Shown piece by piece: positions 78 to 6,200 of a DNA stretch of 6,200 bases. Origin of the DNA: a virus. The DNA is taken from positions 1 through 6,200 of IMG/VR virus record IMGVR_UViG_3300011982_000016; one strand, given 5' to 3'. The position numbers were made by a program, and so were the translations under genes. The notes under the pieces were generated by a model. It saw only the letters and a program-made list of their open reading frames with translations, had not been told where the DNA came from and searched no databases. The stretch's first letter is position 1; each line of letters opens with the position of its first letter.

Positions 78-188
78 GCACAAGCGTTGATAATAGCCAT
101 CACGGCGTACAGCTGCATTTATAACGGAATTCTCTGGAATATAATTACCGCAATTAAACGAGAAGTAAGAGGGTTTATTAACTAACAT
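1..188 (-). CDS. VP4: 5' (N-terminal) portion of the replication initiator Rep (VP4-like). It continues across the circular junction into 4938-6123, and bases 1-77 duplicate 6124-6200.
   Basis: Manual translation of the minus strand starts at ATG 188-186, and an in-frame TAG lies just upstream at 200-198. It gives MLVNKPSYFSFNCGNYIPENSVINAAVRRDGYYQRLCSEISDTYKLGGTC (50 aa). This joins in frame to L-MLLLTYNNKSLPF, the beginning of the ORF-track protein. The R-x3-Y-x-R-L-x2-E segment followed by LLLTY fits the usual microvirus Rep layout, in which about 50 residues precede motif I. Confidence 0.8.
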   Translation of the reverse strand, partial: MLVNKPSYFSFNCGNYIPENSVINAAVRRDGYYQRLCSEISDTYKLGGTCLMLLLTYNNKSL

Positions 189-199
189 AACGAAATACT

Positions 200-310
200 A
201 TTTATATAGAGCAAATGAACGCATTTCGCACCACAGAGGGTGTCGGGGTGTACCGATTGCGTATAATTAGGCAAGTGTTGCGCCCGCTACCTAACGCGCG
301 GATGTAAATA
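200..310. other. GC-rich non-coding island A between the VP2 stop and the Rep start, containing short nested inverted repeats.
   Basis: Hand count of line 241-300 gives 34/60 G+C (about 57%), against about 40% in the capsid genes and 20-25% in the rep 3' half. Inverted repeats: acgca(219-223)/tgcgt(258-262) encloses cacc(229-232)-acagag-ggtg(239-242), and ccgc(284-287) pairs with gcgg(298-301). No ORF is present on either strand. Confidence 0.6.
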
Positions 311-332
311 TATGGGGAGAATTCTCCCCATA
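311..332 (-). terminator. Perfect 22-nt palindrome hairpin 2 nt downstream of the VP2 stop codon. It looks like a terminator or an mRNA 3'-stabiliser.
   Basis: tatggggagaattctccccata is its own reverse complement, giving a stem of up to 9 bp around an aatt loop. On the coding strand it is followed by tatttacatc, which is only a weak T tract. Confidence 0.5.
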
Positions 333-334
333 CA

Positions 335-1645
335 CTACTTATTAGGGTAATACGTATTGCCTGTATTTGTAACATTTACAGTTTTAGCACCTTTAGCTTT
401 GCCACCTGCAACTGCAGGTGCTGCAGATTGAACCGTTTCAGCTATACCACCGAGAAGACACACACCAAGTGCCGACCAATCCATTTTTCCTGTCTTAAAA
501 TATTTATCCATAATATTCTTAAAGGTAAAATTCATTTGTGCTACCTTATCCGAAATATTCAAAGATTTCATAAGCGTATCAAGATGTGTAAAAGCGTCCA
601 TTTGTCGAATATTTGCCCACATTTCCTTTACATGTGCTTCTGCTTCACCAATCTTAGCATTATTCAAACCAATCTCGGAAGCATTCTTGTTAATATTTGA
701 CTCTACCAAAGCTACTTGTAACTGTTCAACTGCAAGCCTAAATTCTCTACATTTTTCAAAAAATTCATTACCATTCTTAAGTTGTCGAACTTCCTCAATA
801 GCTTTCTTATAAGTCTCAACTGGAAGATTAGCAATAGCCTTAATACTTTCTGGATTGTCCATGATAGTATAAAGATTTTGCTTGTACACATATTCAGACC
901 GTTTAGCCTCCTGTTCTGCTCGCGATATATCTACACCATGTGCAATTACTTCAAGCTGCCCTAAAGCTTCCTTGAAACGCTCTTCGCTCATATAACCCTC
1001 AGCAGCATTCGCAATGACAGTTGCACCATTCTCTTCCATCTGTTTACGCTCTTCTGCCGTCATACTTGCATCTGCAACCCGTTTCTTTTCTTCAAAGAAC
1101 GCTCTCAACCAAGACAAACGACGGTCTGACCGCTTTTTCTCATCATCAAATTCACGCTGGCGCTTCTCATTATCAATATCTTGTCCACGTTTTTCAGAAG
1201 TCAATTTATCTGCCGTCTTCTCGAGTACCTTTGACTGAGTAAGTTGCATAATACCCGTTAAAAGGTCACTTCCTGCAGCCTGACCCGTAGCACTTACAGG
1301 CACTTGTTGCGCAGCATTCGAATTAATAGAACCACCATTAAAACCACCATTTAAAGCAGCTACCGAAAGTCCTGCAGCTTGTTGTCCACTCTTTTGAAGT
1401 AAAGGAGTATCATACATAAGTCCCCGTTGGTATTGGTTATTAACAGAAGCCATCTCCTTAGCATTTGCCATATCAATAGCAGCTTTGCGCCTATATTGTT
1501 CGATAGCCGTAGCATTATCAGCTTTATTTCCGAGAAATTTTGACAATAAGCCAAAGCCCATCTTGGCAGCCATACCCCATACAGATGTACCCGTACCCTC
1601 TTTCACAACTCCGCCTATCTTTCCTAAAAGATTTCCTAAACTCAT
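335..1645 (-). CDS. VP2: Minor capsid / DNA pilot protein (VP2-like, functional analogue of phiX174 H), 436 aa.
   Basis: A long ATG-initiated ORF (cat at 1643-1645) sits directly downstream of the major capsid gene, which is the conserved microvirus position. The N-terminus is Gly/Ala-rich (MSLGNLLGKIGGVVKEG...). The central segment is highly charged and coiled-coil-like (EKRGQDIDNEKRQREFDDEKKRSDRR...EERKQMEENG). Near the C-terminus is a hydrophobic stretch (WSALGVCLLGGIAETV). The assignment rests on position and composition, not on a homology search. Confidence 0.8.
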   Translation of the reverse strand: MSLGNLLGKIGGVVKEGTGTSVWGMAAKMGFGLLSKFLGNKADNATAIEQYRRKAAIDMANAKEMASVNNQYQRGLMYDTPLLQKSGQQAAGLSVAALNGGFNGGSINSNAAQQVPVSATGQAAGSDLLTGIMQLTQSKVLEKTADKLTSEKRGQDIDNEKRQREFDDEKKRSDRRLSWLRAFFEEKKRVADASMTAEERKQMEENGATVIANAAEGYMSEERFKEALGQLEVIAHGVDISRAEQEAKRSEYVYKQNLYTIMDNPESIKAIANLPVETYKKAIEEVRQLKNGNEFFEKCREFRLAVEQLQVALVESNINKNASEIGLNNAKIGEAEAHVKEMWANIRQMDAFTHLDTLMKSLNISDKVAQMNFTFKNIMDKYFKTGKMDWSALGVCLLGGIAETVQSAAPAVAGGKAKGAKTVNVTNTGNTYYPNK

Positions 1646-3724: not shown

Positions 3725-3997
3725 TTAAGGGTGAATATCTTGAGCATCCAATGCTTTAAGTGCCGTACTGTCATCAATAGGCTCAATGCCTAAAACAGAG
3801 GGGTTTAACTGCTGCAAAGATACGCCTGCTTCCAACAGCGTATCAAGGTCATATTCTTTATACGGTGGCAAAGATGCGGGTTTATTCTCATTTTTAACTA
3901 CCAATACCTTACCATTCTGTAAGGTATCCTTGAGGGTGACACGGTCAGTGTTTACACCTCCTGCTATTGCAGGAGGTGGTAAAATTTTTCCAAACAT
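3725..3997 (-). CDS. Hypothetical 90-aa protein immediately upstream of VP1, possibly a scaffolding or assembly factor.
   Basis: The ORF starts at ATG (3995-3997) and is tightly packed. It begins 3 nt after the stop of the 31-aa ORF and ends 8 nt before the VP1 start. The C-terminal half is acidic (YDLDTLLEAG...IEPIDDSTALKALDAQDIHP). I recognise no motif, so the function is inferred from position only. Confidence 0.6.
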   Translation of the reverse strand: MFGKILPPPAIAGGVNTDRVTLKDTLQNGKVLVVKNENKPASLPPYKEYDLDTLLEAGVSLQQLNPSVLGIEPIDDSTALKALDAQDIHP

Positions 3998-4000
3998 AAC

Positions 4001-4096
4001 TTACTTTTTTTTGCCGGGCTTCTTTGTAAATAGCCCAATGATAAAACTTGCGATAGCAACTATCACGTTTACTAACTCGGGTGACATGTGTTCCAT
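4001..4096 (-). CDS. Unannotated 31-aa micro-ORF encoding a single-pass membrane-type peptide with a basic tail.
   Basis: Manual translation from ATG 4096-4094 to TAA 4003-4001 gives MEHMSPELVNVIVAIASFIIGLFTKKPGKKK. It has a hydrophobic core of about 17 residues (LVNVIVAIASFIIGLFT) built from mixed codons rather than only TTN codons, followed by KKPGKKK. The stop lies 3 nt before the next gene's ATG. The ORF is too short to appear in the ORF track. Confidence 0.4.
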   Translation of the reverse strand: MEHMSPELVNVIVAIASFIIGLFTKKPGKKK

Positions 4097-4177
4097 AATT
4101 TAAAACTTTTAAAAAAATAAACAATATATTTATAACTAAAAATAACAATATCGTGAATATCGCTGAGGGCTCTGTTG

Positions 4178-4264
4178 ATAGGGGAGGTATCTTCGCCTTG
4201 CAGGCTCGACCTCTCTGTAGGTACTGTCGTTATGGGGGCTGTGAGCCCCCTATACCCCCTCTAT
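4178..4264. other. GC-rich structured island B: a 13-position long-range stem enclosing three small hairpins.
   Basis: ataggggaggtat (4178-4190) pairs with ataccccctctat (4252-4264), giving 11 Watson-Crick pairs, 1 G-T pair and 1 mismatch. Three hairpins lie inside: gcct-tgc-aggc (4195-4205), acct-ctctgt-aggt (4209-4222) and gggggct-gtg-agccccc (4234-4250). Hand count of line 4201-4260 gives 36/60 G+C (60%). The region is non-coding on both strands. Confidence 0.55.
4234..4250 (-). terminator. GC-rich hairpin about 25 nt downstream of the peptidase stop codon, with no T tract.
   Basis: gggggct gtg agccccc forms a 7-bp stem with a 3-nt loop. The flanking tat (4231-4233) can pair with ata (4252-4254) if a 1-nt bulge is allowed. 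The architecture (tatGGGG...CCCCata) matches the hairpin at 311-332. Confidence 0.35.
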
Positions 4265-4275
4265 AGCCTTACAGC

Positions 4276-4608
4276 TTACGGTTTGGGGTCATATTCAATA
4301 TGAATATGGTCCTTTTCCAAAACTATATCCAGTGTTCTATCAAAGTGAAATTTTAACAAATTTAAAAACCTATTAGTTTCTTCTTTCGTCTTATCACTTA
4401 TCCGACAATCAAAAGCCAAACCTTTATAATGTAAACTATTTTTACCATGCTTACCCTCTACTGTAGAGGTTATAACCATTTTTTTAGAGAAATATTTTAA
4501 ATGTAAAAAGGCAATAGATATAATATACATATCCATAACGTCAATTAAACCGTCGTGCTTTACACCGTCCTTGTATAAAACATCTATAACATAACAAAAT
4601 TTATCCAT
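4276..4608 (-). CDS. Zinc D,D-/L,D-peptidase of the M15 / LAS (Hedgehog/DD-peptidase fold) type, a putative peptidoglycan hydrolase (endolysin), 110 aa.
   Basis: The zinc-ligand signature S-x-H-x-x-G-x-A-x-D is present as SLHYKGLAFD (nt 4408-4437). The C-terminal H-x-H ligand motif is present as DHIHIEYD (HIH at nt 4300-4308). Both have the spacing and order characteristic of M15 phage endolysins and VanY/VanX-like enzymes. The ORF starts at ATG and stops at TAA. I could see no signal peptide or membrane anchor. Confidence 0.82.
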   Translation of the reverse strand: MDKFCYVIDVLYKDGVKHDGLIDVMDMYIISIAFLHLKYFSKKMVITSTVEGKHGKNSLHYKGLAFDCRISDKTKEETNRFLNLLKFHFDRTLDIVLEKDHIHIEYDPKP

Positions 4609-4751
4609 AATCTTAAAAAATTAAAATTTAATTTCATCAAAAGCATGTACCTTAACATAACGCTTCAAAATCTCTAAATCCTTTCTCTTGGACAACAATT
4701 AGGAGCATACATTGTAGCATCAATTAACGTCATATCAGTAACACGTGCTAT

Positions 4752-4856
4752 TCAACAGTAATTAGTAACAGGCGACCAATATTTTACAACATAAACACCA
4801 CGCCCAACGGGGAGAAAATGAAAATCACTTAAAGAAATTTTAACTCTTTTTAACAT
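4752..4856 (-). CDS. Speculative 34-aa micro-ORF in the leader region downstream of the predicted promoter.
   Basis: Translation from ATG 4856-4854 to TGA 4754-4752 gives MLKRVKISLSDFHFLPVGRGVYVVKYWSPVTNYC. It is the only ATG-initiated ORF longer than 25 codons on the coding strand in the 330-nt gap. There is no recognisable motif. Confidence 0.2.
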   Translation of the reverse strand: MLKRVKISLSDFHFLPVGRGVYVVKYWSPVTNYC

Positions 4857-4892
4857 AACCTTGATATTTAATTAATTATTTATTTAACACCA

Positions 4893-4924
4893 CAAAGTTA
4901 AAACTATTTTTTTAAAACAACAAA
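4893..4924 (-). promoter_or_regulatory. Candidate Bacteroidota-type promoter (-33 TTTG / -7 TAnnTTTG) just downstream of the rep stop.
   Basis: The coding strand reads TTTG(4924-4921)-ttgttttaaaaaaatagttt(20 nt)-TAACTTTG(4900-4893). This matches the Bacteroides primary-sigma consensus TTTG-N19-21-TAnnTTTG exactly. The background is AT-rich, so a chance match is possible. Confidence 0.4.
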
Positions 4925-4937
4925 TAAAATTACTACT

Positions 4938-6200
4938 TTAACATAAATTAACGGGGTAACATTTCACTGCGTTACGCTTCTTTATCTCGTAATTCTCATT
5001 TTCCTTTAATATTCTCTCTTCCTGGTCTATCTCTATTAATGTATCAAGTTGCTTAATACAATATTTCATTTTATTTGACAAATCAATAAATTCAGAAGGC
5101 AAAGTATTAATATAAGATGAATATTTACAACGCTTTGAAAACTCTAAATACCTACTATAAGTATCGCTTTGAAAGCTAATATATTTCTTAATATTCTCAA
5201 TATCAAATGCAGAATAAAAATCTTTTATAAAATCTCTTACATTACTACTAAATATTCTAACATATTGACGATATTTTGCTAAAATACTTGCTAATTTATA
5301 TATATCATTATTTAAAATGAAACATTTTGATATATACATAAATTCGCTATTATTTACAAAATTACTCGCAATAACATTATAATACTTAAGTGTTAAATTA
5401 TCTAAAGATACTAATTTATACTGTATAAACTTCTCATCATCAACTTTCAATATCCTGTCATATAAAGCATTGTTTTTCAGACCTTTACGACAATCAAAAG
5501 CCAACACATTAGAATACATATATTTATTAATTATATATTGTGGAATTGGAGCATATCTTTTCGTAAGAGGGTTCAAAATACCTTTATGCAAAGTTTCCGA
5601 AAAGTCAGTAATTAATTGATTTTCAAGAGATTGACCAATACCATTACTTTGAAAAATACGAGGAAAACACCGCAATACTTCCAATGCTTTATCGTATTCA
5701 TGTCCTGACTTCAAATGCTCGTAATACCTACGAAGCCTAACTACTTTAGGATGGCCAAGATAAGCTACATCTTTAGTAACATACTTCGATACATAAGATG
5801 CTGCAGCATGGCGAGAACGAAGCAAAGCTTTCTCATAACTGCCTATTTTAGCATCTGGAAAGACAAAACCATAATCCAAAGATTTATCCCAGATTTCACG
5901 AACCAAATTTATAAAATTACGATACTTTGATTTGTCATGGCAAAACAAAAGTAAATGGTAGTGTTGTCGCTTAGTATCGCTTCCATACTCCATACATATA
6001 AAATACTTATAACTACCTAATTGCCTACGACGGCTATATACTTTTAATCTGTTAAGAAAAGTTTGCAAATGCTTACGATTAAACGTAGGTGCATACTCAT
6101 CATATAACGGATTATAAGTAAAAGGCAATGATTTGTTATTATATGTAAGCAAAAGCATCAAACAAGTACCACCTAATTTATATGTATCACTAATTTCAGA
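4938..6200 (-). CDS. VP4: Replication initiator protein (HUH rolling-circle endonuclease, VP4 / phiX174 A-like). The 5' end runs off the window and continues at 188-78 through the circular junction, for a full length of about 457 aa.
   Basis: Motif I is LLLTY. The HUH motif is HYHLLLF (HYH at nt 5955-5963). The di-tyrosine catalytic motif is YVSKYVTK (nt 5772-5795), with the Y-x-x-K-Y-x-x-K form of the phiX174 A protein. The ORF track's start at 6161 is a TTG codon inside a frame that stays open to base 6200 (...SEISDTYKLGGTC). The stop is TAA at 4938-4940. Confidence 0.93.
   Translation of the reverse strand, partial: SEISDTYKLGGTCLMLLLTYNNKSLPFTYNPLYDEYAPTFNRKHLQTFLNRLKVYSRRRQLGSYKYFICMEYGSDTKRQHYHLLLFCHDKSKYRNFINLVREIWDKSLDYGFVFPDAKIGSYEKALLRSRHAAASYVSKYVTKDVAYLGHPKVVRLRRYYEHLKSGHEYDKALEVLRCFPRIFQSNGIGQSLENQLITDFSETLHKGILNPLTKRYAPIPQYIINKYMYSNVLAFDCRKGLKNNALYDRILKVDDEKFIQYKLVSLDNLTLKYYNVIASNFVNNSEFMYISKCFILNNDIYKLASILAKYRQYVRIFSSNVRDFIKDFYSAFDIENIKKYISFQSDTYSRYLEFSKRCKYSSYINTLPSEFIDLSNKMKYCIKQLDTLIEIDQEERILKENENYEIKKRNAVKCYPVNLC
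5022..5051 (-). other. Candidate viral-strand (rolling-circle) origin: a 30-nt phiX174-ori-like sequence inside the rep coding region.
   Basis: The coding strand from 5051 to 5022 reads CAACTTGATA-CATTAATAGAG-ATAGACCA-G. The phiX174 30-nt origin, as I recall it, reads CAACTTGATA-TTAATAACACT-ATAGACCA-C. Both conserved blocks are identical (10 nt and 8 nt) and are separated by the same 11-nt AT-rich spacer. By analogy, the nick would fall between G (5045) and A (5044) on the minus strand. Confidence 0.6.
6124..6200. repeat. Terminal direct repeat, copy 2 (identical to 1-77).
   Basis: Same evidence as copy 1. This copy lies inside the rep coding sequence. Confidence 0.97.

Follow-up and report, generated by a model that had tools for sequence, protein, structure and literature searches.

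The window analysed here, a 6,200-nt stretch of viral DNA, comprises the whole of a circular microvirus genome of 6,123 nt and a 77-nt overlap, in which bases 1-77 recur at 6124-6200; this agrees with a first-pass annotation that had described a microvirus genome of only ∼6.1 kb. All genes lie on the minus strand, and the major genes are all open under translation table 11. In GenBank, the closest entry to the window is Microvirus D_HF3_26, obtained from human saliva and 86% identical to it at the nucleotide level across the full length. The accessory slot between the Rep/VP4 gene and the gene of the major capsid protein (MCP) holds a broken ORF, a 110-aa ORF for a predicted zinc peptidase, a GC-rich island and a 31-aa ORF for a membrane peptide. 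The features of the window and of the related loci are listed in Table 1.

Table 1. Features of the window and of related genomes; coordinates are in nucleotides of the sequence named in the second column.
Feature	Sequence	Coordinates	Strand	Remarks
Rep/VP4 gene	window	start at 188	minus	457 aa; runs across the circle junction
Conserved block	window	137-286	minus	candidate regulatory or origin element
Pilot-protein gene, mosaic	window	287-1172	minus	
31-aa membrane-peptide ORF	window	4001-4096	minus	from ORF list, hydrophobicity, pN/pS and family HMM
GC-rich multi-hairpin non-coding island	window	4162-4275	minus	between the peptidase and the TM-peptide gene
110-aa peptidase ORF	window	4276-4608	minus	ATG start
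Recombinant cassette (upstream ORF and most of the peptidase gene)	window	4300-4920	minus	from sliding-window identity
Remnant of 78-aa accessory ORF	window	4621-4856	minus	intact in L009, L010 and L001
Bacteroidota-type promoter-like motif, TTTG-N-TAnnTTTG	window	4893-4924	minus	after the Rep stop and ahead of the accessory cassette
90-aa ORF	window		minus	listed after the 31-aa ORF
MCP gene	window		minus	672 aa
436-aa protein gene	window		minus	close relative L001 has 'DNA pilot protein' annotated at this position
Integrated prophage	L002	5961-11864		peptidase gene outermost at one junction
Integrated prophage	L003			peptidase gene outermost at one junction
Integrated prophage	L014			peptidase gene outermost at one junction
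Integrated prophage	L032	6663-12127		peptidase gene outermost at one junction
Peptide gene, no peptidase gene	L030	2980-3162		60-aa member between capsid and pilot genes; complete 5,448-nt circle
Peptidase gene, no peptide-family member (HMM)	L023, L024, L005, L008, L016			L023, gokushovirus from Ciona; L005, L008 and L016, tailed phages
Neither gene (HMM)	L025-L029			0 of 5 with the peptide
Second hydrophobic ORF	L004	5856-5978		
Second hydrophobic ORF	L017	3723-3845		
Second hydrophobic ORF	L018	3688-3798		
Second hydrophobic ORF	L019	3634-3753		
Second hydrophobic ORF	L021	3697-3840		
Second hydrophobic ORF	L022	3788-3916		
Lipoprotein-like ORF	L025	3104-3271		
Lipoprotein-like ORF	L026	1920-2141		
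Lipoprotein-like ORF	L027	5515-5691		
Lipoprotein-like ORF	L028	4038-4253		
Lipoprotein-like ORF	L029	1697-1870		

The 110-aa ORF was found where the first-pass annotation had placed it, with both of the motifs read from it, SLHYKGLAFD (S58-L-H60-Y-K-G63-L-A65-F-D67) and HIH (H101-I-H103). It is a real gene under purifying selection, with a pN/pS of 0.08 in comparison with the 93%-identical copy in L009. A word-seeded search returned 62 homologues, and an exhaustive search with the family profile (E ≤ 1e-3) returned 6,130 cluster representatives, nearly all of them stand-alone proteins of 98-110 aa; the domain is also found as a C-terminal fusion on proteins of 363-1,075 aa. Across the alignment of 63 sequences, residues H60, A65, D67, R69, D94, H101, H103, and E105 do not vary, and 90% or more of the sequences retain H54, S58, Y61, G63, and E98. 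H60, D67, and H103 are the predicted Zn ligands; E98, H101, and H54 are candidates for the catalytic residues. No N-terminal signal or SAR-like segment was found in the peptidase, as had been claimed, and its sole hydrophobic stretch (residues 21-37) is part of a helix of the folded domain (residues 23-40, pLDDT ∼96).

Used as a single sequence, the peptidase missed the Pfam thresholds: HH_signal (PF01085) gave 18.4 bits against a gathering score of 22.1 (E = 0.0019), and Peptidase_M15_3 (PF08291; MEROPS M15A) gave 15.6 bits against 23.2 (E = 0.018). There was no match in PHROGs and NCBIfam, and the matches in PDB were weak. At E ≤ 0.01, HH_signal matches 29 of the 63 family members and Peptidase_M15_3 matches 19 of the 63 (best E-value, 1.7e-4). 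Judged by profile scores, these sub-threshold M15_3 matches show clan-level relatedness and no formal membership. Because the single-sequence matches in Pfam and PDB were weak, a family profile was needed; its search of PDB found the Hedgehog N-domains at E = 4e-7, with the SLHYxGxAxD and HIH segments falling on the zinc ligands of Shh. With the AlphaFold (AF2) model of the peptidase (pLDDT 93.4, pTM 0.85), Foldseek found ShhN, IhhN, and DhhN in PDB (TM 0.70-0.74, probability 1.00), followed by the pneumococcal LD-endopeptidase VldE with a domain TM of 0.56. The top match among the viral structures of BFVD was a Microviridae protein automatically named 'Sonic hedgehog protein' (TM 0.89, 39% identity), and further matches were to 'Peptidase M15A C-terminal', 'Murein endopeptidase K', and tail-associated lysin domains.

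The zinc motif of LAS/Peptidase_MD proteins is present in the peptidase as H60-x6-D67 and H101-x-H103, aligned to the Shh zinc ligands, and the AF2 model superposes on solved LAS proteins, with a central antiparallel sheet against helices. The equivalent of the catalytic Glu of Shh (E177) is E98 in LEKDHIH, directly before the H-x-H; it aligns beside the YESKAHIH segment of Shh, which has a 2-residue insertion. Since the H-x6-D, the H-x-H, and the catalytic Glu of the Hh/DD-peptidase family are all in place, we concluded that the protein is, by sequence and model, a predicted minimal LAS/MD-clan zinc peptidase of the M15A/Hedgehog branch. The first-pass identification of an M15/LAS-type zinc peptidase is therefore upheld at the level of clan and fold, with conserved catalytic residues, a profile E-value of 4e-7 and a TM of ∼0.73. 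The HMM and structure searches that it had suggested gave a divided answer, the single sequence staying below the Pfam gathering scores while the family profile and Foldseek matched Hh/M15A. Its proposed T5/Ply500-type superposition targets proved to be the wrong branch: T5 endolysin and Ply500/Ply118 (M15C) were found neither at E ≤ 1 in the profile search of PDB nor among the best 50 Foldseek matches in PDB, and the nearest proteins are those of the Hedgehog/DD-peptidase branch (M15A, Pfam M15_3). With the latter family (Roelink, 2018; PMC6027127) the peptidase shares the H-x6-D and H-x-H motifs, a catalytic Glu just before the H-x-H, the SLHY(K/E)G motif and the fold (TM ∼0.73), and the family provides the best PDB matches in both sequence and structure. 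Unlike ShhN, the peptidase is ∼40 residues shorter, at the N-terminus; and whereas bacterial Hh-like domains form the C-terminal portion of larger proteins, it is stand-alone, phage-encoded and without a signalling context.

The supposition that the gene class is probably not new was correct, given two earlier reports. M15_3 peptidases were described in 11 human-associated microviruses, with horizontal acquisition inferred and an endolysin role proposed, and M15_3 homologues were noted beside holins in prophages (Roux et al., 2012; PMC3394797). Peptidases were later listed with the small number of accessory microvirus genes that are associated with lysis, and a ∼700-nt recombination event had shifted a peptidase between microvirus families (Kirchberger et al., 2022; PMC9239249). 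The peptidase of the window resembles those M15_3 (M15A) enzymes as an accessory zinc peptidase of Alpavirinae/Gokushovirinae-type genomes, which is horizontally acquired, common to tailed phages and Bacteroidota prophages, proposed to be an endolysin, and recombined between distant microviruses as a ∼0.6-0.7 kb cassette; it differs in that the ∼100-110-aa branch found here falls below the Pfam M15_3 gathering score. The peptidase itself brings no new concept, having been under discussion since 2012. The particular feature of the present case is a divergent ∼100-aa branch that goes unnamed in the matching GenBank phage records, 14 of 14 of which read 'hypothetical protein' or carry no annotation. 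The present analysis gives a name and a fold to a large family (∼6,000 clusters at 50% identity) that mostly lacks a Pfam domain and is poorly annotated in the records checked. It adds a testable pair, the ∼110-aa zinc peptidase and a conserved, previously under-annotated membrane peptide of 31-58 aa.

The family also occurs in microvirus prophages of Bacteroidota-like chromosomes and in matching free circles (L002-L004, L014, and L032/L033); one virus was recovered both integrated (L002/L003) and as a free circle (L004). No integrated copies of the window's clade were detected in this analysis. In tailed phage L005 the homologue lies between packaging-like genes, and in tailed phage L008 it directly follows the gene of a 1,140-aa protein, itself located after three Collar-domain tail-fibre genes. 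In the tailed-phage contig L016 it comes directly after tail-like genes, and a GTA_holin_3TM-like protein (23.8 bits; cut-off, 24.8) is encoded three genes downstream of it.

In comparison with L001 and L012, the sliding-window identity falls to 40-64% within the cassette of Table 1, whereas the backbone outside it, GC-rich island and 31-aa gene included, is mostly 80-98% identical. In the same comparison the peptidase shows 57-60% amino acid identity, against 94% for the MCP. The peptidase cassette is horizontally mobile. Its upstream 78-aa ORF is broken in the window by a TGG to TGA change (4752-4754) and by the loss of one nucleotide from an A-run near 4690, which reflect either a decaying gene or assembly errors. 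Stop-codon recoding was considered, as the TGA aligns with Trp in the relatives, and was rejected because of the additional 1-nt deletion and because the major genes are open under table 11. In L012 and L013 the slot of the 78-aa ORF is occupied by an unrelated 96-aa ORF.

The first-pass annotation had described the peptidase gene as a unit of its own, set between a promoter-like AT-rich region and a structured GC-rich island. The second flank stood up to analysis and the isolated unit with its own AT-rich promoter did not. The AT-rich region is mostly the broken 78-aa ORF, and a scan of 3900-5000 for sigma-70 promoters and terminators found no enrichment (7 against 4.7±2.1 expected). The sole Bacteroidota-type promoter-like motif here lies further upstream, before the entire cassette (Table 1); the window as a whole contains three matches to it against 0.53 expected, which is weak evidence, as 3 of 200 shuffles also reach three. 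The island, which includes the hairpin GGGGGCU-CAC-AGCCCCC, is structured beyond chance, with folding z-scores of -3.5 as RNA and -4.1 as DNA against shuffled controls. It is almost invariant in four relatives although the adjoining peptidase gene is highly divergent, and only two compensatory pairs were seen among these four near-identical sequences. A search of the whole window against Rfam (E ≤ 1) gave no match. The island may be a candidate complementary-strand origin, or a terminator or attenuator acting between the peptidase and the peptide gene.

The signal-less peptidase had been reported to have no canonical holin nearby. In substance this was not borne out, as a conserved ORF for a 31-aa, single-TM, basic-tailed peptide lies ∼180 nt downstream of the peptidase gene. 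The peptide, MEHMSPELVNVIVAIASFIIGLFTKKPGKKK, has an acidic N-terminus, ∼19 hydrophobic residues and a polybasic KKPGKKK tail, and its KD17 hydrophobicity is 2.47. The ORF is a real gene under purifying selection: its pN/pS is 0.03-0.09 between four relatives, with 8-15 synonymous versus 1-4 non-synonymous changes per pair, and the ratio is reversed in the other two frames. Gene callers independently predicted it in L009 and L010. The members of the peptide family share the motif ...TF(L/I/V)(L/I/V)GLF(I/T)(N/K)P/K..., followed by a K/R-rich tail, and come in two forms, one of 31-35 aa and one of 57-60 aa (58 aa in the loci analysed). The long form has an extra signal-peptide-like N-terminal segment, which suggests that a common N-out/C-in topology can be predicted for both. 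The 58-aa form is recorded in Prevotella bivia genomes, which gives a host genus for the prophage-forming clade. The prophage-forming clades also have a second ORF for a conserved hydrophobic product of 36-47 aa, which starts with the consensus M(N/S/T)EKDKL(Y/F)K... and lies between the pilot-protein gene and the peptidase gene further downstream (Table 1).

There was no significant match of the peptide to a curated holin family in Pfam, PHROGs, or tblastn. Pfam Phage_holin_10 matched 3 of 11 members, all of them 58-aa variants, at 19.6 bits against a cut-off of 27 (E ∼1e-3), and left the 31-aa form unmatched; PHROGs gave weak matches only. Bacillus phage 'holin' genes, found by tblastn of the 31-aa peptide at E ∼1, were dropped as chance or compositional matches. 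One relative, DAK63207.1, is called 'holin [Microviridae sp.]' in nr, which is an automated GenBank TPA name. The peptide has the general features of holins, being a small phage membrane protein with at least one TMD, a charged C-terminus and a lysin gene nearby, and it is probably a holin-like candidate partner of the peptidase. Such a partner is described in neither of the earlier reports: the word 'holin' is absent from one (Kirchberger et al., 2022; PMC9239249), and the other refers just to a neighbouring 'unknown ORF' (Roux et al., 2012; PMC3394797).

Using a family HMM, we found the peptide gene directly downstream of the peptidase gene in 12 of 12 non-redundant Alpavirinae-like genomes (the window, L001, L004, L009, L012, L015, and L017-L022), the genomes so counted not being phylogenetically independent. 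The near-duplicates L010 and L013 share the peptide ORF, and L032-L035, which were sampled via the peptide, have the peptidase with the peptide directly downstream. Strict two-way co-occurrence was ruled out by genomes that carry only one of the two genes (Table 1). No peptidase was found in the six frames of L030, so the peptide does not need the enzyme; the peptidase is found alone in L023, L024, and the three tailed phages. The MCPs of the five genomes with neither gene are 34-46% identical to that of the window, whereas those of the other clades with peptidase and TM peptide are only 22-28% identical to it, over partial alignments. The placement of the pair also differs between the two clades, Rep-pep-TM-MCP in one and VP2-pep-TM-Rep in the other. 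Because the genomes with neither gene are the closer ones by MCP and because the pair sits at different genome positions, the linkage of the two genes across these very different backbones goes beyond simple shared ancestry. The notion of a module that always moves as one unit has to be qualified, as the window's clade swapped only the peptidase and the upstream ORF. An exchangeable peptidase allele next to a fixed peptide would be expected if the peptide makes a non-specific lesion on which the enzyme depends, and not the reverse. A 1.7-kb contig with the peptide beside an integrase-like gene (L031) was too short upstream to judge.

The mode of lysis is at issue for most microviruses outside the phiX174 type, among them the Bacteroidota-infecting phages that abound in the human mouth, gut, and vagina. 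The best explanation of the locus, and one in which we have moderate confidence, is a two-gene lysis module formed by the zinc peptidase and the 31-aa membrane peptide. The 12.8-kDa peptidase, made in the cytoplasm, would be the peptidoglycan-cleaving lysis enzyme of the phage. As it has no export signal, it would depend on the peptide encoded ∼180 nt downstream. The peptide would sit N-out/C-in and permeabilise the inner membrane late in infection, and through its lesion the peptidase would reach the murein of the host, a member of the Bacteroidota that is probably Prevotella-like. The peptide gene largely resolves how a signal-less enzyme could reach the wall. A lysis role is consistent with the holin-like neighbour, with the GTA_holin_3TM-like protein near the homologue in L016, and with the proposals in the literature (Roux et al., 2012; Kirchberger et al., 2022).

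Several findings speak against the two-gene module. The holin assignment draws on sub-threshold matches and an automated TPA name, the peptide occurs without the peptidase in L030 and the peptidase without the peptide in L023, L024, and three tailed phages, the peptidase allele was swapped in the window's clade while the TM gene stayed, and no spanin-like outer-membrane component was found here. With 31 aa and one helix, the peptide is below the size of the well-studied holins known to us that release soluble endolysins, and lesions of pinholin size would not pass a folded protein. The arrangement resembles the holin-endolysin cassettes of tailed phages in that a soluble, signal-less enzyme (predicted to be muralytic in this case) is encoded beside a small membrane protein with a charged tail. 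It differs from them in that the enzyme comes first and the peptide second, that the peptide is far smaller than the characterised holins of soluble endolysins, and that it lacks a significant holin-family match and an accompanying spanin. Two-TMD class II holins and pinholins such as S21-68 have an Ala/Gly-rich first hydrophobic segment and a second TMD, as do the 58-aa variants of the peptide; the 31-34-aa variants would correspond to the second TMD alone.

The main rival to the two-gene module, unlikely in our estimate, makes the TM peptide the primary and self-sufficient effector of lysis or killing, which would block a membrane step of wall synthesis or act as a depolarising toxin, with the peptidase as a dispensable accessory. 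The complete genome L030 with its peptide and no peptidase would fit this reading, as would the exchange of the cassette independently of the TM gene in the window's clade and the precedent of the classical microviruses, which need a single small membrane protein for lysis, E in phiX174 (Roux et al., 2012; PMC3394797). It accounts poorly for the fact that all sampled peptidase-bearing Alpavirinae-like genomes keep the peptide directly downstream, and for an enzyme under strong purifying selection with its active site intact. A signal-less enzyme would be useless without a membrane lesion, so that the self-sufficient peptide and the two-gene module overlap and are not exclusive. The phiX174 E protein, which is overprinted and 91 aa long, inhibits MraY without any muralytic enzyme. 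The 31-aa peptide is like it a small microvirus membrane protein, possibly lytic alone, as the TM-only genome L030 suggests; unlike E, it is encoded by a separate non-overlapping gene that is nearly always paired with the peptidase.

The remaining readings take the peptidase out of progeny release. A function in lysogeny, such as remodelling of the host peptidoglycan, superinfection exclusion or a prophage 'moron', appears quite improbable: the gene does occupy the typical moron position, outermost and next to the host junction, in L002/L003, L014, and L032, and in L005 the homologue lies outside a lysis cassette, between packaging-like genes, but an enzyme with no export signal could not reach the wall of an intact lysogen, the peptidase is tightly linked to the membrane peptide, and no integrated copies of the window's clade were seen. 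Highly improbable, too, is a virion-associated enzyme that would open the wall at entry. We know of no microvirus T=1 capsid that packages an enzyme, the gene lies outside the structural block in a swappable accessory slot, and its pairing with a membrane peptide is not required for entry; these points weigh against the C-terminal fusions to large proteins, the occurrence of the domain in tail, tape-measure and gp5-like proteins (BFVD), and the location of the homologue directly after tail-like genes in L008 and L016. That the best sequence and structure matches are Hedgehog signalling domains and not characterised lysins could point to a catalytically inactive, Hedgehog-like binding protein. 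Such a pseudo-peptidase is scarcely credible, since the residues lost in the inactive Drosophila Hh, which are the D of H-x6-D, the second H of H-x-H, and the catalytic E (Roelink, 2018; PMC6027127), are all kept here (among the 63 sequences D67 and H103 are invariant and E98 is present in at least 90%).

An extension of the two-gene module, plausible but offered tentatively, would be that this 6.1-kb ssDNA microvirus carries a complete two-component holin-endolysin system whose membrane part has 31 residues. The peptidase would depend on the peptide, without which it does not occur in the sampled Alpavirinae-like genomes, the peptide could work alone, as in L030, and in sister lineages a small lipoprotein would take the slot as an alternative lysis device. 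If this is true, the 31-residue holin would be among the smallest known and the module would represent a second, non-phiX174 lysis strategy in Microviridae. The two-gene module, if confirmed, would be a minimal lysis cassette for Prevotella/Bacteroides.

Small lipoprotein-like ORFs were observed in the five peptidase-less genomes L025-L029 (Table 1). Each encodes a signal sequence and a Cys in a lipobox-like context, and the motif ...SC(K/R)T(Y/F)FEGE... is common to four of the five. They lie in the accessory slot between Rep and MCP, the place of the peptidase and the TM peptide in the window. Their products may be an alternative lysis or exclusion device.

Two further observations concern the remainder of the window. 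The pilot-protein gene is a mosaic, with 62-79% identity to L001 at 723-1172 and 65-74% identity to L009/L012 at 287-722, a pattern that suggests separate recombination events. The most conserved 150-nt block of the genome, with 96-98% identity to L001, L009, and L012, spans the Rep start and the non-coding region upstream of it; this candidate regulatory or origin element is overlapped by a spurious conserved 'ORF' (..YIYIRALGSGRNTCLIIRNRYTPTP..).
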